NCBI GenBank assembly: GCA_963762115.1 | Contig: CAVXJH010000003.1 | Span: 480,001-544,000, forward strand | Source of the DNA: Candidatus Babeliales bacterium | Lineage (GTDB): Bacteria > Babelota > Babeliae > Babelales > JANWKD01 | Direction: 5' to 3' | Length of the DNA: 64,000 nucleotides | Shown here: positions 18,620-59,334 of the stretch, one piece after another | Position numbering within the stretch: the stretch's first letter is position 1 | How the letters are laid out: the number at the start of each line of letters is the position of its first letter | Program-made: the position numbers and the translations under genes | Notes under the pieces: generated by a model | Seen by the model: the letters and a program-made list of their open reading frames with translations, nothing else | What the model was told of the DNA's origin: nothing | Database searches by the model: none

Positions 18620-19180
18620 GACAGAAAACCCCAGGGTTTTAAACCTGGGGATGAATGTCATCAAATGCGCGAGCGAAGCAAAAATGTAAATTTTTGCGAA
18701 GTGAGGTTAGTTTTGTCATACTAATTGACATGACAAAGAAATATTGGCACGGAGCGCATACAACTCATAGGCATATGTATCATATAGTTTGGTTACCTAA
18801 ATATAGAAAAAAAGTATTAGAAGGCAAAGTTAAGAGCAGGTTAGAAGAACTTTTGCGAGAATGTGCGGAAATTAATGCATGGGAAATTCAAGAACTAAAT
18901 ATTCAGATAGACCATGTGCATCTTGTAATACAATTACCACCAAGTGTGAGTGTGAGCAAGGCCGTTCAATTACTCAAGGGAATTTCAAGTAAAATGCTCA
19001 GAGCTGAATTACCTGAAATAAAGAAATTTTTGTGGGGTAACGATTTTTGGGCAGATGGATATTTCTCTGAAACATTTGGACAATGTTCAGAAGAGACAAT
19101 TCTCAATTATGTTAGAAATCAATAAAAAGCTTTCATCTCGTGCTTCTAAATCCACGGCTTTTAAGCCGTGTGTTGTTTAA
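18620..19180 (+). mobile_element. IS200/IS605-family element (tnpA only)
   Basis: Left hairpin CCCCAGG-GTTTTAAA-CCTGGGG (18629-18650), right hairpin CACGGCTT-TT-AAGCCGTG (19153-19170) around a Y1 transposase; ends approximate. Confidence 0.85.
18730..19125 (+). CDS. tnpA: IS200-type HUH (Y1) transposase
   Basis: YHIVWLPKYR, DHVHL (HUH), KGISS, FWADGYF, YVRNQ; start set to ATG 18730. Confidence 0.92.
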   Translation: MTKKYWHGAHTTHRHMYHIVWLPKYRKKVLEGKVKSRLEELLRECAEINAWEIQELNIQIDHVHLVIQLPPSVSVSKAVQLLKGISSKMLRAELPEIKKFLWGNDFWADGYFSETFGQCSEETILNYVRNQ

Positions 19181-21980: not shown

Positions 21981-22301
21981 GGCCCTATGCGGGCCAGGCA
22001 TCCTCCTACGCTTATCCACGCCTTCCGGCTTGGCAAGCTACGAAGGACAGGCAAACCTTCGCAAAGGTGCTGCAGATCGTTTAACGATTGAGATCCTAGG
22101 GAATATTTATAGATGTTTCATGGTGAAATTTTTATAAATAAGTTAGTCCGGTAGTGCGACGTGCACCTGGAATTTTGATGCTGAAGGCATCAATAATGGA
22201 ATGGTGCATATTCGCGCGGGAGAGACAATCCAACGGAACGTTGGGGCCCTTGTATCAAAGGTATTGGGCAAACAATACCTTTGTGCTGCCCGCATAGGGC
22301 C
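21981..22301. repeat. Modular hairpin repeat (family B) copy 1, MITE-like, with terminal inverted repeats
   Basis: GGCCCTATGCGGG...CCCGCATAGGGCC; largely the reverse complement of 47644-48051. Confidence 0.85.
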
Positions 22302-22328
22302 GAATGATATAAAAATAATAATAACTTA

Positions 22329-27147: not shown

Positions 27148-27328
27148 AAATGTCATTGCGAGGCACATTGTGCCGTGGCAACCCAGATTATAAAATTCTT
27201 TCTTTATTTTTTCTAATTTTAATTTGCTTAAATTTACTGATTCAATAAGCTTTTTATTTTTATGGATTTTATTAATAGAACATTATAATCTGGGTTGCCA
27301 CGGCACAATGTGCCTCGCAATGACATTT
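27148..27328. repeat. Family A inverted-repeat doublet (REPIN-like), no cargo
   Basis: 46-bp perfect arms 27148-27193 / 27283-27328 (AAATGTCATTGCGAGGCACATTGTGCCGTGGCAACCCAGATTATAA) around an AT-rich spacer. Confidence 0.9.
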
Positions 27329-27400: not shown

Positions 27401-28537
27401 ATGGAAAAAAAGGAGCTCCAGGTACTTTATATTATCACCAAATTAGAATTGGGCGGCGCACAAAAAGTATGTTTATCACTGTTTGAAAAACTTCAAAATC
27501 TTGGCAATGCAGCCTATCTTATTTCTGGCAATGAAGGAACTTTAGTCGATCAGGTAAAAAACAAAAATAATGTTCATTTACTGCCTAATTTTAAACGTGA
27601 AATGTCTTTAAAAATAGTTTGGTCAGAACTAAAAAACTTCTTTCAACTCATCTGGCATATTCGTAATCTGCGCAAAGAAAATCCTCGACTTATTGTACAC
27701 ACCCATAGCACAAAAGCAGGCTTAATTGGCCGCTGGGCAGCATTTTTTGCACGAGTGCCAACACGCATACACACCGTGCATGGGTACCATTTTCATGATC
27801 ATCAATCATGGCCATTATGGCTTATTTCTTATCTTCTTGAATTCATTACGAGCTTTATTACGACACATTATGTGTGTGTTTCATCAGCTGACATTAACTA
27901 CGGCATCAAGTTATTACCTTTTTTTAAGAAAAAAAGCTCAATCATCCGCGCAGCCGTTGCTTGGGAACAATTTTATTTGTCTGCCAAAGTCACCACCATA
28001 CAAGATAAAAAACCTTTTGTAATCGGTACGGTTGCTTGCTTCAAAAAACAAAAAAATATTGATGAATTGTTACAAGCTTTTACTCATGCATATCAAAAAA
28101 ATAATTTGCTCAGACTTGAAATCTTAGGTGATGGCATTTTAAGAAACAGTTTTGAAGAATGGATTAATAAGCATAATCTTTCAGCGGTCATAACCCTCCA
28201 TGGTTGGCAAAAAGATGTCAGTTCATTTATGAAAATATGGCACGCTTTTGCTTTAACATCACTCTGGGAAGGATTACCATGCGCTATTATTGAAGCACGC
28301 CTTATGAAATTACCAATTCTTGCTTATAATACTGGCGGCATTCATGATGTTGTTTTTAACAATCAAAATGGCTTTTTATATGCCCAACATGATTGGCAAA
28401 CCATGGCCGATGATATGCTTAAAATAAGCAACAATAAAGAGTTATACAACCGCTTAAGTAATCACCAAGAAGATCTATTAGCGTTTCATGATAACAATAT
28501 GGTTCAAGCACATGTTGCTTTATATGCATCGTATTAA
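27401..28537 (+). CDS. Glycosyltransferase family 4
   Basis: GGAQK, HTHSTKAG, HTVHG, SLWEGLPCAIIEA. Confidence 0.9.
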   Translation: MEKKELQVLYIITKLELGGAQKVCLSLFEKLQNLGNAAYLISGNEGTLVDQVKNKNNVHLLPNFKREMSLKIVWSELKNFFQLIWHIRNLRKENPRLIVHTHSTKAGLIGRWAAFFARVPTRIHTVHGYHFHDHQSWPLWLISYLLEFITSFITTHYVCVSSADINYGIKLLPFFKKKSSIIRAAVAWEQFYLSAKVTTIQDKKPFVIGTVACFKKQKNIDELLQAFTHAYQKNNLLRLEILGDGILRNSFEEWINKHNLSAVITLHGWQKDVSSFMKIWHAFALTSLWEGLPCAIIEARLMKLPILAYNTGGIHDVVFNNQNGFLYAQHDWQTMADDMLKISNNKELYNRLSNHQEDLLAFHDNNMVQAHVALYASY

Positions 28538-28600: not shown

Positions 28601-28781
28601 TGTCATTGCGAGGCACATTGTGCCGTGGCAACCCAGATTATAATGTTTTAATAAATAAGAGTTCATAAAAAAAACTAAAAAATTATTAGATGAACAAATC
28701 TTTTTTAATTAAATTATAAGGGAAAATGATAGAATTTTATAGGCTGGGTTGCCACGGCAACAATGTTGCCTCGCAATGACA
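28601..28781. repeat. Family A inverted-repeat doublet (REPIN-like), no cargo
   Basis: TGTCATTGCGAGGCACATTGTGCCGTGGCAACCCAG...CTGGGTTGCCACGGCAACAATGTTGCCTCGCAATGACA. Confidence 0.9.
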
Positions 28782-33674: not shown

Positions 33675-33715
33675 TGTCATTGCGAGCGCATGCGTGGCAA
33701 CCCAGTCTATAAAAT
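33675..33715 (+). repeat. Family A solo arm
   Basis: TGTCATTGCGAG-CGCATGCG-TGGCAACCCAGTCTATAAAAT; no partner arm seen. Confidence 0.8.
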
Positions 33716-33888
33716 AAATTCCATATATTATTGATACCATTTCCACATCTTTGTTTTTAGTATTTTTTAATATTATACGGCCCTATGCGGGCAGCACAAA
33801 GGTATTGCGTGCCCAATACCTTTGATACAAGGGCCTCCCCCTTCGCTTATCCACGCCTTCCGGCTTGGCAAGCTTGTATGTTAAATCA

Positions 33889-34092
33889 AAATGATTTTAA
33901 AGCTAAATTTTGTTAATTTATGATCAGTTGTTTTGAAATTAATTGTTTGAGAAGCTGATAGATCTCGTGTCAAGCTTGGTCTCAAAGGACCGTGTCATAG
34001 TTTGAGACTATCAGCTTATACAAAAATGACCTCGAACAATCACTAGAGACGTATCAAGTACATACGATCTCGCATGTCTACAAGCCAGAGGT
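33889..34092 (+). ncRNA. Predicted IS110 bridge RNA (target- and donor-binding loops)
   Basis: Stem 33952-33966/34004-34017 encloses TGTCAAGCT and CATAG (target guides); stem 34029-34033/34088-34092 encloses ACAATCACT and TACAAG (donor guides); 5' end inferred from junction promoter. Confidence 0.85.
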
Positions 34093-35038: not shown

Positions 35039-35249
35039 TATTGTTTAGCTTTATTAAAAAATATTTGACTTTTAACACAATCACTATGGCGGACAGGCCA
35101 ACCCTTCGAAGCGTTAGCGTAGTAGGGCCGCGCGAAAACGTGAATTCTAAATCTTGATGCAGAATGCATCAAGATTTAGAATTCACATCGCCACTACCGG
35201 ACTAACCTATATTTATAAATTTTCTTTAGAATTTCATTTATTTGGGCAA

Positions 35250-35705: not shown

Positions 35706-38288
35706 GTGAAGAAACATATTATTTTCTTAACCATTTTTCTTATCATTGCCAATTCATTACCCATGTATTCAATGGAAACTGATGAGTTAGATATACGAGC
35801 AAAAGTTGAAAAATTAATAATCGAAGATGATCTTGATGCGCTCATTGATGATGTCACACCATTAATTTTTGCCGTTCAACAAAATGACCTTGATCTTATG
35901 CATCGACTTATTGCATTTGGTGCTAATGTTAATGCGCAAGCTTTAAATGGTTCAACGGCATTATTAGAAGCAGTAAAAATGTATGAGACAGCCAATAATT
36001 TCAATGTTATTAACTATTTGGTTAGTTGTGGTGCTCGAAATGATATTGAAGATGAAAAAGGGGAAACTGCTCTTTTTGTTGCTCGAGATTCTGGGTTTAA
36101 TGAAGTTGTAGAATTTTTGTTACCTCAAAACAATGTGAGTGTTCAAGGAAATGCAACACCATTGATACATGATGATTCGGAAGAAACAGAAAAACAATCT
36201 GATATAAAACAGACTGAAAAAGGAAAAGAAAAAGAGTCTCAAGAAGATAAAAAATCTAAAAAGACAAAAAAGCAAATTTTAGCAACTATGATTAAAAAAC
36301 CGATAAGGGTTATTGAATCAGGGGTAAAAGCTAGTTATTATGCTTCTCTTCATTATCTTCATCAAAAAAATGCTGATTATCAAAAAAGAGCATTAAGAAA
36401 ATATCTTAAAAATATAAAAAAACAATCGCAAATTAATGATAGATATTCACCATTGATAGCGGCAGTTAAAAATAATGATCTTGAAACGGTAATAACATTA
36501 CTTAGTGACCCAATGACAGATGTTAATATGAAAGATCATACAGAATGGACGGCCTTAGCAACTGCAATACATCAAGGTAATTTAAAAATTGTAGAAGTAT
36601 TGGTTAATCATAAAGGAATAATTCTTGATGCGCCAAGTTCTTCTAGATGCTGGACAGCATTAATGGAAGCTATTTTTACTCAAAATGTTGAAATTGTAAA
36701 ACTTTTAATAGAAAAAGGAGCCAATATCAATGCTGTAAACAATCTTGGAGTAACAGTTTTGATACTTGCTGTTTGGCATGGAACTCCTGAAATAATTGAC
36801 TTACTTTTAAGTTTTAATGCCGATGAAGATAAAAAATTAAATATTAATAATAAAAACACTTCAGGCTATACTGCTTTATTTTATGCAGCTCAAAGAAATA
36901 ATTTAGATTTGGTCAAGAAATTAATAAATCTTGGTGCAATTATTGAAAATGAATCTATGGAAACTAGCCCTCTAAATCCGATTCATAAAAGTAATAAAAA
37001 TACTAATCAAGAAATTAATAAAGAAATAGTAGAGTTTTTGAGAGAAGCATTTGAAGAAAGAAGTAAAAAAGAATCTGCTCAAAATATTTTTGAAGGAAAA
37101 ATTGAGGAAAAACAAGAAATTTCTCAAGCAAAACCTAAAAAAGTAATGCAATCTGAGCTTGCATCAAAGCTTTTACGTGCACTGAAAAATGGTGATCTTG
37201 CTACGATTCAAGATGCAATTGCAAAAGGTGTTGATATTAATCTTGCATTAAATGAATATGGTGACACTTTATTTATTCTTGCAATTGATAATAAAAAAAT
37301 TAATATTGCTCAATGGTTAATTGAAGCAGGTTCTGATATTAATAAAAGTAATAATGATGAGATAACACCATTGCTATTGGCTATGGCAAATGAAGAGCCT
37401 AAAATTATTCAATGGTTACTTGAAATTCCTGGTATTGATGCTAATAAACCTACTGATGAAGGAGTTACCCCATTGATAGCGGCTATAGCAAATAAAAAGT
37501 ATAAAATTGTTCAATGGTTACTTGAGACTCCTGGTATTGATGTTAATAAAGCCCATAGCAATGGAGTTACTCCATTGTTAAGGGCTATAGCAGATAAAGA
37601 GCATAAAATTGTTCAATGGTTACTTGAAACTCCTGGTATTGATGTTAATAAAGCCAATAATAATGGAGTAACTCCATTGCTATGGGCTATAGCAAATAAA
37701 GAGTTTAAAATTGTTCAGTGGTTACTTGAAACTCCTGGTATTGATGTTAATAAAGCCAATAATAATGGAGTAACTCCATTGCTATGGGCTATAGCAAATA
37801 AAGAGTTTAAAATTGTTCAGTGGTTACTTGAAACTCCTGGTATTGATGTTAATAAAGCTAATAATAATGGAGTAACTCCATTAATGAAAGCTATAGTTAT
37901 TGAAGAATTTGTGATTGCGCGCTTATTAATTACTAAGGGTGCAAATGTCAACGCTCTAAATAATTATGAAGCCTCAGCCCTAGTATGTGCTTTTTGTCAC
38001 ATAAACAATATTGGATTTTGCAATGACCATATATCTTTCATCTTCTTATTGATTGCACATGGGGCTGATGTAAACATTTCATGTATAATTAATGATAAAA
38101 AAACAACAATATTACAATGTGTGGTTGAAAATGGATGGATTAGCCTGCTCGAAAGTATTCTTAATTGCCAAACAGTTGATAAAATGAAAATTCGCGAATG
38201 GGCAATAGCAAGCAATAATAGAAAAGTAATCAATTTTTTAGATAAAAAAGAGGATTTAGATAAAAAAGAACGTTGTATAATAAGTTAA
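35706..38288 (+). CDS. Secreted ankyrin-repeat protein with C-terminal CaaX (860 aa)
   Basis: GTG start with AAGGAG; signal peptide ...PMYS-ME; many TPL..A repeats; ends KKERCIIS. Confidence 0.9.
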   Translation: MKKHIIFLTIFLIIANSLPMYSMETDELDIRAKVEKLIIEDDLDALIDDVTPLIFAVQQNDLDLMHRLIAFGANVNAQALNGSTALLEAVKMYETANNFNVINYLVSCGARNDIEDEKGETALFVARDSGFNEVVEFLLPQNNVSVQGNATPLIHDDSEETEKQSDIKQTEKGKEKESQEDKKSKKTKKQILATMIKKPIRVIESGVKASYYASLHYLHQKNADYQKRALRKYLKNIKKQSQINDRYSPLIAAVKNNDLETVITLLSDPMTDVNMKDHTEWTALATAIHQGNLKIVEVLVNHKGIILDAPSSSRCWTALMEAIFTQNVEIVKLLIEKGANINAVNNLGVTVLILAVWHGTPEIIDLLLSFNADEDKKLNINNKNTSGYTALFYAAQRNNLDLVKKLINLGAIIENESMETSPLNPIHKSNKNTNQEINKEIVEFLREAFEERSKKESAQNIFEGKIEEKQEISQAKPKKVMQSELASKLLRALKNGDLATIQDAIAKGVDINLALNEYGDTLFILAIDNKKINIAQWLIEAGSDINKSNNDEITPLLLAMANEEPKIIQWLLEIPGIDANKPTDEGVTPLIAAIANKKYKIVQWLLETPGIDVNKAHSNGVTPLLRAIADKEHKIVQWLLETPGIDVNKANNNGVTPLLWAIANKEFKIVQWLLETPGIDVNKANNNGVTPLLWAIANKEFKIVQWLLETPGIDVNKANNNGVTPLMKAIVIEEFVIARLLITKGANVNALNNYEASALVCAFCHINNIGFCNDHISFIFLLIAHGADVNISCIINDKKTTILQCVVENGWISLLESILNCQTVDKMKIREWAIASNNRKVINFLDKKEDLDKKERCIIS
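37401..37882 (+). repeat. 102-bp tandem repeat, about 4.7 copies (34-aa ankyrin unit)
   Basis: AAAATT(A/G)TTCA(A/G)TGGTTACTTGA at 37401, 37503, 37605, 37707, 37809. Confidence 0.95.
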
Positions 38289-42115: not shown

Positions 42116-45001
42116 ATGAAAAAACATAGTATGCTCTTCACCATTTTATTCACCATCGCAAGTTCATTACCCCTATATTCAATGGAAATGAGTGTTAATG
42201 AAATAAAGAAAAACATCCAAACTCGTATAGCTAAAGGCGATGATGATCTTGATATGCCTGATACCGTTGGCGTTATACCTTTAATTTTTGCAGCACAACA
42301 AAATGATGCTGATCTTACTCATGAACTTGTTGCATTTCGTGCCACTGTTGATGTTCAAGATATGCAAGGATCAACGCCATTGTTATGGGCAATACGTAAG
42401 GGTAATGTTACTCTTGCACACCATTTAATTGATTATGGTGCACGTGGTGATATTCAAGATAAAAGTGGCAATACACCCTATTCACTTGCTTGTGATTATT
42501 CTCTCAGTGATATTGTAAACCGTATTAAACCCGAAAAAACAACTCCAGAAAAGGGTAAAGAAATAGAAGAATCTTTAGAGCAACCTCAAACAACCGGAAA
42601 ACAAAAAGAATATAAGAAAAAATCCCAAAAAGCTTTCACGGTATTATGTCTTACAAATGCTCGTAAAAACAGTGTGGAAACTCAAAAAAAATTATTGACA
42701 ATGTTCACTGAAGAAAAAGCCCAGTTAAAATCTTCAGCAAAAAAATCATCAACAGCACAAGATGATTGGTATCAATTATTCACGGCAGTTTCTGAAAATA
42801 ATCTTGAAAAGGTAACACGCCTCCTTGAAGATAAAAATACTGATATCAATGCACAAACACCATCAGATTGGACAGCACTTACCCGTGCTTGTGATCAACT
42901 CAATGTTGAAATGGTAGAAAAATTAATTGAACACAATTCTATCATTGTTGATCTTCCCCTTAAAAGAGGTACCACTCCTTTAATGATTGTAGCATCAAAA
43001 GTTGCACCCGCTTCACAAGATGATAAAACCGGAAAAAACGCTTTTAAGATTGTAAAATTATTGCTTGAACATGGTGCTCATATTGATGCCCAAGATAATG
43101 ATGGCGCAACCGCATTAATCAAGTCTCTTATGAGTGGCAACATTAAAACTGCCAAGCTTCTCATTAAGCTTGGAGCTGATACAACAATAAAAGATAAACA
43201 TGGGTTTAATGCTCTTTTTTATGCTGCAGGAAAAGGACATCTACCTATTGTTGAAAAATTAATCAAACGTGGCACACCTGTTGATGCAACAACAAAACAA
43301 TGGAATCCTGTTACTCAGACAATTTCAGAAAGTCATTATGAAATTGCACAATTGTTACAAGCAGAAGCAGCAAAATTATTAGATGAAGTAGAAGAATCTC
43401 TTAAAAATCAAGAAACAGAACAAACGGTTTCTAAAAAAAATAATAATCAAAACAATGTAAGCCTTTGGGAACGATTCAAAAAAAGTATTACAGATTCAAC
43501 AAAACCGGTAACAAAAGATTTTCTCTTTGCGAAAGATCAAAAAAACTTAAAAAAATGGTTAAAAAAGACTACATCAAAATTAAGATACATTCATGCTCAT
43601 GATATGCAAAATGCAATAGAAATAGGCAATGCATTATTATCTAGAAGTTATGAACAAACAAATGAATGGTATTGGGTGACCATTGGGATTTATGAAAAAA
43701 TTTGTAATGATCATATTGAAATAATACGTATCTTGACTCAATGGTTATGTGCAAAAAATAGAGGCCTTCCAATGACACCCTTGCACATCGCCATAATGAA
43801 AGGTTCAACAAGAGTAGCTCAATGGTTAATTGAAACAAGCAAAGACATTGAATCGGATTCTTATTATGATGGATCCACACCTTTACTATTAGCAATACAA
43901 AAAAACGAATCTAAAATTGTTCAATTATTAATCGAAGCCAGTGTTGATTTAAACAAAAGTAATAATGATGGAATAACACCATTAATGACAACAATTGCAA
44001 ACAAGCAACCAGAAATTGCACGATTATTAATCGAAGCTGGAGTTGATGTAAATAAAGAACAAGATAATAATCTCTCTTTATTAATGTTAGCAATTGCACA
44101 TAAACAAACAGAAATTGTTCAATTATTAATTAAAGCCTGTGCTGACGTTAATAAAAGTTGTAATGGAATGCAACCATTAACACTAGCAATAAGCAATAAT
44201 GAACCAGAAATTACTCAATTGCTCATACAAACTGGTGCAGATATTGATAAAGAGGATAATAATGGACTTACACCATTATTATTGGCAATACTAAAGAATC
44301 AACCAGAAATTGCTCGATTATTAATTGAAGCTGGTGCCGATGTAAATAAACCTGATAATGATGATTGCACACCATTAATAAGTGCAATTGTAAATAACCA
44401 ATTAGAGATTGCTCAATTATTAATTAAAGCCAGGGCAAATGTTAACGTTAATCTTCCCGATAGAACAGGAATTGCCCACAAAAGCTTAAGTCTCTTAGAA
44501 TATATAGCTAAGCAACCAAAATTACTAGAAATTTTTTCCTGTATTCTTGTTCATAATGCTGACCTGAGTGAAGCAACAAAACTAAAAATGCGAGTATGGG
44601 CAATTGAGGAAAACAATCAAAAAGCAATTGAAACATTAGACGCTTTTAATATTGATTATGATCTTGGTGGTTTTTATAAAATTTCTAAAGATGATCAACA
44701 AAACAAACAAACTGCCAATAATCCAAGAAGGACGATTGTTCATGCCATTGAAAAATCAACAGGGAAACCGACTGATTTAATAGAATTAATTGAAGTACTT
44801 GATAAATACAATATGCTTAATCAAGAAGCTATGGAAGATATTGAAGAAGCAGCCAATCAAAAAGCATCCATAGCAGCAAACCAAAGGGCATTTTTATTAT
44901 CCAGGGTACGTGATAATTTAACCCGTTTAAATACTATGCAAGAACATATACATCAACTGCAGCAGTCTAAACAAAATCCACCTTCTAAAGGAGATAAATA
45001 G
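42116..45001 (+). CDS. Secreted ankyrin-repeat protein (961 aa), paralog of 35706
   Basis: MKKH...IASSLPLYS-ME N-terminus like 35706; three ankyrin blocks in the same arrangement. Confidence 0.9.
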   Translation: MKKHSMLFTILFTIASSLPLYSMEMSVNEIKKNIQTRIAKGDDDLDMPDTVGVIPLIFAAQQNDADLTHELVAFRATVDVQDMQGSTPLLWAIRKGNVTLAHHLIDYGARGDIQDKSGNTPYSLACDYSLSDIVNRIKPEKTTPEKGKEIEESLEQPQTTGKQKEYKKKSQKAFTVLCLTNARKNSVETQKKLLTMFTEEKAQLKSSAKKSSTAQDDWYQLFTAVSENNLEKVTRLLEDKNTDINAQTPSDWTALTRACDQLNVEMVEKLIEHNSIIVDLPLKRGTTPLMIVASKVAPASQDDKTGKNAFKIVKLLLEHGAHIDAQDNDGATALIKSLMSGNIKTAKLLIKLGADTTIKDKHGFNALFYAAGKGHLPIVEKLIKRGTPVDATTKQWNPVTQTISESHYEIAQLLQAEAAKLLDEVEESLKNQETEQTVSKKNNNQNNVSLWERFKKSITDSTKPVTKDFLFAKDQKNLKKWLKKTTSKLRYIHAHDMQNAIEIGNALLSRSYEQTNEWYWVTIGIYEKICNDHIEIIRILTQWLCAKNRGLPMTPLHIAIMKGSTRVAQWLIETSKDIESDSYYDGSTPLLLAIQKNESKIVQLLIEASVDLNKSNNDGITPLMTTIANKQPEIARLLIEAGVDVNKEQDNNLSLLMLAIAHKQTEIVQLLIKACADVNKSCNGMQPLTLAISNNEPEITQLLIQTGADIDKEDNNGLTPLLLAILKNQPEIARLLIEAGADVNKPDNDDCTPLISAIVNNQLEIAQLLIKARANVNVNLPDRTGIAHKSLSLLEYIAKQPKLLEIFSCILVHNADLSEATKLKMRVWAIEENNQKAIETLDAFNIDYDLGGFYKISKDDQQNKQTANNPRRTIVHAIEKSTGKPTDLIELIEVLDKYNMLNQEAMEDIEEAANQKASIAANQRAFLLSRVRDNLTRLNTMQEHIHQLQQSKQNPPSKGDK

Positions 45002-47612: not shown

Positions 47613-47643
47613 AATTTTATAAACATAAATTTTATTATCTCTC

Positions 47644-48051
47644 GGCCCTATGCGGGCAGCACAAAGGTATTGCGTGCCTCCGCCTACGCTTATCCAGGCC
47701 TTCAGGCTTGGCAAGCTTCGTCGGACAGGCAATATACCTTTGATACAAGGGCATCCGCCTTCGCCAAGGCTTCGGCGGACAGGCCAACCCTTCGAAGCGT
47801 TAGCGTAGTAGGGCCGCGCGAATATACACCACTCACTCATTGATGCCTTCAGCATCAAAATTCCAGGTGCACGTCGCACTACCGGACTAACTTATTTATA
47901 AAAATTTCGCCATGCAACATCTATAAATATTCCGTTGAGCAAGACTGTTAGACGATCTGCAACATCTTTGCGAAGGTTTTCCTGTCCTTCGTAGCTTGCC
48001 AAGCCGGAAGGCGTGGATAAGCGTAGGAGGATGCCTAGCCGGCACGAGGCT
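47644..48051. repeat. Family B repeat copy 3, with extra nested palindromic modules
   Basis: Reverse complement of 21981-22301 with added CC(G)CCT(A/T)CGC...GGACAGG modules; far TIR degenerate. Confidence 0.88.
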
Positions 48052-52675: not shown

Positions 52676-52921
52676 AATAACTCCATTTTACTGATAAGAT
52701 AACCTCAATATAACTATTTTATCAAAAATGGAAAAAATGACAATCAATATATGCTTATTTGTAAATAATAGGCAGAAAATGGTCACTTAACCCTGGTTAT
52801 TCATAAAATACAGGGTGTTTTATGCCTTAACCTATAAATGTGCTGCAAAACATTGTAAACTTACTATTAAGGCAAATTCGATAAAAACGTGCTGATAGCA
52901 AAAAAACGTAAAAAACAGAGG

Positions 52922-53336
52922 TGTCATTGCGAGCCAACATTGTTGGCGTGGCAACTCAGCCAATAAAATTCTATTAATGAGATCCCTATGAAACAACCCG
53001 CAGTGTACATTATAACAAATAAAAAAAATGGAGCTCTTTATACAGGAGTAACTTCTAGTCTACTGCAAAGAATTCATCAACATAAAAACAATATAATTGA
53101 AGGATTTACAAAACAACATGGTTGTAAATTACTTGTCTATTATGAGCTTTATGACAACATGTTAAAAGCAATTGAGCGTGAAAAACAAATAAAATCAGGA
53201 TCAAGAATAAAAAAATTAAAACTAATTGAATCAGCAAATCCTTGTTGGTTTGATTTGTTTGAGCAAATCAATAAAGAAAATTAATAGAATTTTATTGGCT
53301 GGGTTGCCACGCCAACAATGTTGGCTCGCAATGACA
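52922..53336 (+). mobile_element. Family A element carrying a GIY-YIG nuclease between 56-bp inverted repeats
   Basis: Arms 52922-52977 and 53281-53336 are reverse complements at 55/56 positions; ORF fills the interior; mobility is inferred. Confidence 0.75.
52988..53284 (+). CDS. GIY-YIG nuclease (stand-alone, 98 aa)
   Basis: AVYI...LYTGVT...QRIHQH...AIEREKQIK...NP.W.DL; catalytic Y/R/E/N pattern present. Confidence 0.9.
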   Translation: MKQPAVYIITNKKNGALYTGVTSSLLQRIHQHKNNIIEGFTKQHGCKLLVYYELYDNMLKAIEREKQIKSGSRIKKLKLIESANPCWFDLFEQINKEN

Positions 53337-53427
53337 TTTCCGACTATCTAAGTTACCGTTAAAATTGTTTATCACCTACATCGAGTTCGCATTATAACGT
53401 TATACACCAAATTCATTAGGTAAATTC

Positions 53428-59222: not shown

Positions 59223-59334
59223 CGTCATTCTGAGGCAACTTGTTGCCGTAGGAATCCAGTCAATAAAGTTACTTCCTTAAGTAATTACATAATAAATTCT
59301 GGATTACTACGTCGCTACGCTCCTCATAATGACA
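59223..59334. repeat. Divergent family A-like inverted doublet
   Basis: CGTCATTCTGAGGCAACTTGTTGCCGTAGGAATCCAG ... CTGGATTACTACGTCGCTACGCTCCTCATAATGACA. Confidence 0.7.

Follow-up and report, generated by a model that had tools for sequence, protein, structure and literature searches.

The stretch of DNA analysed here (the window, 64,000 nt) belongs to the 1.53-Mb genome of a Candidatus Babeliales bacterium (G000); the genomes named beside it include G001 of the same genus, G004 of the same family and G051 of another family. At 52922–53336 the window holds a cassette in which two inward-facing arms enclose a small GIY-YIG nuclease gene (Table 1). The preliminary description had given this as a 415-bp unit of two arms and a 98-aa ORF with its stop codon in the right arm, and so it is, except that the arms are 57 nt long and not 56; they are complementary at 56 of 57 positions, and the TAA of the gene (53282–53284) falls inside the right one. 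All other elements on its list are present too: two gene-less units (27151, 28601), a solo arm (33675) and a divergent pair (59223). It did not include a second gene-carrying copy in G000, outside the window (G000:C3:558388–558798, 81% amino acid identity), or the IS982-type repeats at 52870–52884 and 53378–53392, which lie on both sides of the cassette and make it part of a 523-bp unit (52870–53392). Four gene-carrying copies occur in G001, each flanked by inward arms.

Table 1. Features of the nuclease cassette and of the related gene-less units in the window.
Feature	Position	Strand	Remarks
Gene-less dimer, 175 bp, with remnant of the KKLKLIES codons of the gene	27151..27325	-	local alignment score 38, p 0.010 vs shuffles
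Gene-less dimer, 181 bp, with weak gene remnant (p 0.06)	28601..28781	+	weak outer repeat at 28537 (score 7.8)
Solo arm	33675..33705	+	second-family repeat follows at 33765
Left IS982-type terminal inverted repeat, decayed; outer end of the 523-bp composite	52870..52884	+	matrix score 13.4
AT-rich spacer, left terminal repeat to left arm	52885..52921	.	from sequence; spacers of this sort common to several copies
Left arm: TGTC tag and bulged hairpin (52922-52959) plus 19-nt inner extension	52922..52978	+	
Gene for 98-aa single-domain GIY-YIG nuclease, Ssn family, KxGSR sub-clade	52988..53284	+	Y7, Y18, E65
Right arm, inverted; contains the stop codon of the nuclease gene	53280..53336	-	
Spacer, right arm to right terminal repeat	53337..53377	.	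from sequence alignment
Right IS982-type terminal inverted repeat	53378..53392	-	matrix score 18.0
Gene-less dimer, 112 bp, of stem variants with compensatory changes	59223..59334	.	outer repeat not detected

In a profile search the window protein matched PF01541 above the cut-off (E 1.1e-15), its sole domain; matches to NCBIfam all stayed below threshold, and a sequence search yielded no relative in the PDB. Ssn proteins are described, in the accessible text of Chenal 2025 (PMC11893778), as single-domain GIY-YIG proteins that bind NTS/SRM hairpins on single-stranded DNA (ssDNA) and cut a few bases upstream; an SRM lies near 71% of Ssn homologs and on both sides of 42%, and SsnA of Neisseria meningitidis lowers the integration of transforming DNA that bears NTS. 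Like SsnA (CDD cd10448), the window protein is a single-domain GIY-YIG protein of about 95 aa (98 aa, under the Ssn limit of 150 aa), and its Y7, Y18 and E65 keep the spacing, 11 and 47, of SsnA residues Y6, Y17 and E64, which were mutated in that study. Its identity to NTS-flanked proteins, used as stand-ins for SsnA, is about 50% (37/37 aligned at E < 1e-10 over 75%, median 50.5%), and 45 of 90 residues are identical in the SRM-flanked protein of locus L009. We conclude that the pairing of nuclease and hairpin at this locus belongs to the already published Ssn system; the preliminary description had been unable to say whether such a link was in print. The IS-like layout of Ssn loci was also noted in PMC11893778 and domestication was proposed, but in its accessible text the layout stands as a hypothesis, cleavage and not transposition having been shown. 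The nuclease gene is under purifying selection (dN/dS 0.08–0.15 in six pairs), and the two G000 genes are old paralogs (dS about 0.94). A promoter scan gave a chance-level result (5 vs 4.8), and a search of sequencing runs returned none that shared half of the query words, with no RNA run among the matches listed.

The arms proved to share a covarying hairpin. In lists gathered without a pairing rule, where the exact frame was kept in 93 of 114 G000 arms and 180 of 204 G001 arms, three stem pairs counted from the TGTC tag were Watson-Crick in 92, 92 and 90 of the 93 and in 178, 179 and 177 of the 180, with two to four pair types at each. The bulged G was found in 89/93 and 178/180 arms, respectively, and a G-T/A-G mismatch is nearly fixed, the inner stem-loop being free to vary. 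A hand-picked alignment of 24 arms held 35 two-sided changes against 12 in shuffles, and controls slid out of frame dropped. Since the folding of single arms surpasses that of shuffles by just a modest margin (z -1.3 to -2.2), our claim for the structure rests on covariation. A protein that binds ssDNA would presumably read the structure of the arm together with a few fixed bases.

The published SRM pattern gave no match in G000 and none at 79 KxGSR loci, because of the mismatch, the bulged G and the long variable inner stem. A bulged arm, facing inward, was present within 200 nt of 71 of 80 homologs fetched by protein and on both sides of 47 (control 7), so that nuclease and hairpin form a conserved pair, and on this the preliminary description was right. 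One of the 80 homologs has an SRM, and it is the only KxWxR-type protein among them; conversely, loci fetched by the NTS hairpin yield KxWxR proteins. From 200 loci we obtained 128 full proteins, the other 72, including all intended outgroups, having no full ORF under the filter. Among these 128, KxGSR proteins had a bulged arm in 72 cases, an SRM in none and neither in 7, whereas KxWxR proteins had an SRM in 40, a bulged arm in 2 and neither in 4, with three proteins of other kinds. In a quick unrooted tree, 82 rows, 74 of them bulged, split off with an SH-aLRT of 98. Both protein sets were chosen by motif and the result is thus a pairing of types, not a census: the hairpin that goes with the KxGSR sub-clade is bulged and covarying, and the published SRM pattern does not detect it. 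Two bulged-arm strings and the word IS982 are absent from 14 text supplements of PMC11893778, whose figures may show such arms, and a literature search, with subscription journals mostly outside its coverage, turned up no publication dealing with either the bulged sub-clade or Ssn units bounded by IS982.

Ssn loci with NTS/SRM and those described here both have inward HGTC-tagged hairpins with a CCAG-type tail on either side, and many gene-less genomic repeats. They differ in the hairpin, which here has the G-T/A-G internal mismatch, the bulged G and a long variable inner stem, in the protein (KxGSR here, KxWxR in NTS-flanked proteins), and in the IS982 ends and gene remnants of the units here, neither of which is reported in the accessible text of PMC11893778. 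In the part of the survey of Di Nocera 2013 (PMC3733652) available to us, CGTC/TGTC-tagged repeats are mostly dimers with no linked transposase. These REP families (dRS3, RPE-4 and RPE-6 included) share with our arms the CGTC/TGTC tag, AT first pairs, a CCA tail, an intergenic position and a mostly inverted-dimer arrangement; they have stems of 8–9 bp with 4–5-nt loops and no linked enzyme, unlike the arms here. Bulged repeats may have escaped that survey, by its own account, and the arms could match its CGTC-3/4 (PMC3733652). REPtrons and REPINs with RAYT (TnpA-REP) also combine a small gene between REP hairpins with dispersed inverted dimers, but here the tag is TGTC and not GTAG, and target duplications lie at outer IS ends. 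Such a system was rejected for this locus, where the gene between the repeats encodes a GIY-YIG and not an HUH (Y1) enzyme and the inspected PF01797 copies have other ends.

Other small GIY-YIG genes were seen near other hairpins. Loci L015, L017, L019, L020, L021 and L023, of the same order, carry a YILKCSDGSYY-like type, which we take to be UPF0213/YhbQ-like, flanked on both sides by inverted hairpins of another family, which may constitute one more pairing of nuclease and repeat, separate from the Ssn clade. Seven small GIY-YIG genes, presumably SLX1-like (three from G000, four from G001), have GC-rich hairpins upstream, as judged by eye. A regular expression for the second repeat family of the window gave no match beside them and did not confirm the link.

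Arms are abundant in both genomes: G000 has 92 and G001 has 182, whereas each genome yields just 1 when its sequence is reversed. The variant dimer at 59223–59334 has inward-facing arms in the same layout as other dimers, and the dimer at 27151–27325 shows no clear outer repeat (scores 2.6 and -0.9). Several gene-less dimers, when read, join the start region to the KKLKLIES codons and the 3' end of the gene. Alignment to the coding core reached p < 0.05 in 8 of 17 testable G000 dimers, 16 further ones being too short; six of the eight align at the same 3' stretch, the best with 27 of 29 identical. Remnants scored higher in sense than in antisense in 13 of 16 dimers (p 0.011), and a position test did not discriminate (11 vs 11). 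The preliminary description had regarded the gene-less units as derivatives of the cassette; because of that last result we uphold this for some dimers, which by their retained codons appear to be deletion derivatives, and not for all.

A second GC-rich hairpin repeat family is present in the window at 21988–22315, 33765–33889, 35088–35136 and 47630–48044, and hairpins like it sit within the loops of some first-family arms. Directly after a second-family repeat, a short perfect palindrome (35138–35190) opens with an IS982-like motif. Tandem arm arrays were seen in G006, in G051 and round one G001 cassette, a divergent copy (G001:C1:261421–261833) in whose array a 13-nt linker recurs and which lacks IS982 ends.

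The outer repeats were scored with a matrix built from 16 ends of PF13612 elements, all from sequences of other genomes and located with a first matrix; a score of 8 was the threshold for an IS982 end beside arms. Matches of at least 12 number seven in the whole window. An inward IS982-type motif lies 30–90 nt outside the arms in 31/92 cases in G000 and 49/182 in G001, with 0–5 in controls. It fits the IS982 consensus 5'-AC(N)6T given in the accessible part of PMC7335449, and in relatives it ends PF13612 (IS982) elements at 10 of the 12 strongest loci scanned, at both ends in 6; two-ended elements of this kind had 5–6-bp duplications in 5/5 tested. Among 100 dimers, both IS982 ends were found in 17, one in 28 and none in 55. 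Six of the 17 two-ended dimers are bounded by an exact target duplication of 5–7 bp (null mean 0.13, at most 2 in 5000 re-pairings). At the arm ends, duplications occurred in 0–3 of 100 dimers at any of eight offsets (null 0.1–1.5). Identity between a copy and its best partner fell from 0.84 in the stretch between repeat and arm to 0.25 immediately beyond the repeat (n = 69 of 80), and in a fair control 37/63 against 0/80 reached at least 0.8. Spacer families go with the same stem variant in 30/30 (expected 12.7) and 8/13 cases (expected 3.1), and the spacer at 53337–53377 resembles, by eye, those on the 3' side of two further cassettes that carry the gene and occupy unrelated sites. Repeat pairs without arms numbered about one, against 17–22 filled pairs. 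Collectively, these data show that the moving unit is larger than arm-to-arm, since copy homology and duplications stop at the outer IS982-type repeats and not at the arms. The 415-bp unit had been proposed as an autonomous, nuclease-driven mover; with these boundaries, and with two gene copies at dS 0.94 that are not recent and near-identical, that proposal is not supported. The nuclease may nevertheless have a role in making or keeping the hairpin family.

Many copies lack strong IS982 ends. Both ends exceed the threshold in one of the six gene-carrying cassettes of G000 and G001, and its duplication is not intact; the other five lack strong IS982 ends, and two thirds of arms have no end at score 8. 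The target duplication of the window cassette has decayed to 4 of 5 letters at best. No PF13612 match was found in G000 (95% complete), the single match in G001 has different ends, and a broken PF13612 element with matching ends is present in the same-family genome G004. A scan of viral sequences for the outer motif gave one locus. IS982-derived MITEs are known (PMC9769881, accessible text), and such elements (PMC7335449; MITECca01 of Cardinium, PMC9769881), as far as these sources could be consulted, share with the units here the 5'-AC(N)6T ends, the short direct repeats, the lack of a transposase and the dependence on a parent element. Unlike them, the units here carry as cargo either a nuclease gene together with its target hairpins or the derived hairpin dimer, have several spacer lengths, and have no parent with these ends that we could find in G000 or G001.

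Three sites were noted separately. At G001:C1:26200–27135 (L192), 80 nt from an arm dimer, is an intact-looking IS982-family element; its terminal repeat is a different one, and it has a direct repeat of 7 bp. In G000, two IS982-type ends about 85 bp apart enclose no arm (G000:C6:160443–160531), and at G000:C6:545659 a single end is followed by just the last bases of an arm; both are possible products of dimer excision.

Comparison of gene order supports movement. Among 464 syntenic gaps between G000 and G001, 394 are empty of arms, 16 are filled in G000 only, 44 in G001 only and 10 in both; at a median protein identity of 68% between the two genomes, gap junctions are not resolved to the single base. 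A filled gap exceeds its empty ortholog by the dimer plus a median of 90 nt (n = 30), against a median of 1 for arm-free gaps (n = 321). Dimers without a detected end show a like excess (median 82, n = 13), which either decayed ends or another mechanism would fit. The gap that holds the window cassette, between a VTT gene and cysteine synthase, is short and free of arms in G001, so the empty site in a relative that the preliminary description had looked to was found, and the cassette was not vertically inherited at this position; the G000 site also has an extra 108-aa ORF outside the unit. The six cassettes of the two genomes occupy six different gaps. One G001 cassette (G001:C1:974566–974979, 73% amino acid identity) is separated by about 2 kb from the G001 ortholog of the window site and stands on the far side of the two VTT genes, a placement that may be either a local hop or coincidence.

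Across 61 genomes of the order, bulged arms were found in 9, with the gene or a remnant in 8 of these; PF13612 matched in 2 of the 9 and in 18 of the other 52. Kin are not independent, so such genome tallies are descriptive. In the ninth genome, G006 (95% complete), 28 bulged arms are present and no nuclease homolog was found with the window query. Most of the 61 genomes yielded no close homolog of the window nuclease, five with KxWxR genes have no bulged arm, and broken gene copies occur in G003, G021 and G051. Strict repeat-plus-arm joins were found in four genomes (G000 5, G001 23, G003 1, G051 4), those of G051 flanking decayed gene remnants; five genomes with 170 arms in total gave no strict match. 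At homologous loci outside the genus, an inward IS982-like match was seen in 3/96 and an outward one in 1. These distributions, across the order and beyond the genus, indicate that the nuclease lineage is what the hairpin family depends on, the IS982 enclosure being local.

The reading that we favour, and consider probable, is that an Ssn cassette and its deletion derivatives are carried by IS982 ends and, in this genus, were likely mobilised in trans by an IS982 transposase. Such a transposase is the likelier mover here because copy boundaries and duplications lie at IS982 ends. The system would have two tiers. In the first, old and spread over many phyla, a gene stands between two inward hairpins; by homology with Neisseria SsnA, its product would recognise the bulged hairpin in ssDNA and place a nick upstream of the TGTC tag, a few bases away, an activity that probably seeds or maintains the hairpin family. 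In the second, seen in this genus and again in one other family, the cassette would have become enclosed by IS982 ends, internal deletions would have taken out most of the gene (as retained codons indicate for some dimers), and units of terminal repeat, spacer, dimer, spacer and terminal repeat would have been copied to new AT-rich intergenic sites with 5–7-bp duplications, by an enzyme that we infer. No matching transposase was found in the assembly, so the units are probably immobile now, their ends decaying. Against this reading, most arms have no detectable IS982 end, arms track the nuclease gene (8/9) and not IS982 (2/9), and purifying selection acts on the gene, something not required of passive cargo.

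A large Ssn sub-clade whose target hairpin is defined by structure would readily supply ssDNA cutters with new specificity, and a published motif search that is blind to the bulged hairpin is a sign that Ssn repeat counts are underestimates. The data also speak to the way in which CGTC-type repeats spread, the boundaries and duplications in this genus belonging to an ordinary IS982 system, and they warn that the symmetry of hairpin, gene and hairpin is no marker of the ends of a mobile unit.

Alternatively, the nuclease itself could move the cassette and dimers, as the preliminary description had inferred, through an ssDNA nick by the hairpin and host repair or strand invasion, with IS982-ended MITEs as a favoured landing place or occasional hitch-hikers. 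We regard this as possible, if doubtful. Arms do track the gene, across the order (8/9 genomes) and across phyla (71/80), and inward IS982-like matches are rare at homologous loci outside the genus (3/96 vs 1 outward), but arm ends have neither the duplication nor the homology break that are both found at IS982 ends. The five genomes with arms and no strict composite, the tandem arrays of G006, G051 and the G001 cassette, the recurrence of repeat-plus-arm joins in a second family (G051) and the selection on the gene all fit it, whereas the few arm-free repeat pairs and the co-segregation of spacer and stem variant fit composite copying better than repeated targeting. GIY-YIG domains are hydrolytic, and we know of no strand-transfer step in them. 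What the accessible text of PMC11893778 demonstrates is cleavage, not transposition. A bolder reading, which we think rather unlikely, is that an unrecognised half of Ssn, the KxGSR proteins with bulged, covarying hairpins in at least 10 phyla, multiplies its own REP-like repeats and that ssDNA nicks by the hairpin repeatedly fuse cassettes to IS982 termini; the units would then be mobile elements of two enzymes, the GIY-YIG nuclease making the cargo and a DDE transposase spreading it.

Improbable, in our judgement, is a third explanation, in which the gene is a domesticated ssDNA restriction factor kept by the host, as in Neisseria, while the cassette and repeats play no active part and owe their scatter to recombination and the traffic of decayed IS elements. 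The reduced integration of NTS-bearing transforming DNA by SsnA (PMC11893778, accessible text), the dN/dS of 0.08–0.15 and the old paralogs agree with such a role; six cassettes in six different gaps of two same-genus genomes, the broken copies in G003, G021 and G051, and the lack of a close homolog in most of the 61 genomes searched do not. Movement of the dimers by a resident IS200-type HUH transposase, as RAYT moves GTAG REPs, is highly improbable: five PF01797 copies are present in G000, one of them in the window, and matches occur in 5/5 genomes tested, but the three that were inspected end in hairpins of their own and lack arms, and target duplications were observed, which HUH transposition is not known to make. 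CGTC repeats, moreover, are tabulated without a link to such transposases in the accessible part of PMC3733652.

The IS200-type TnpA gene (PF01797) of the window lies at 18655–19125 (+) and is near-identical in the three inspected of the five copies. The window further holds coding repeats with a 102-nt period at 37227–37998 and a 99-nt period at 43863–44445, which from their period we take to be ankyrin-like.
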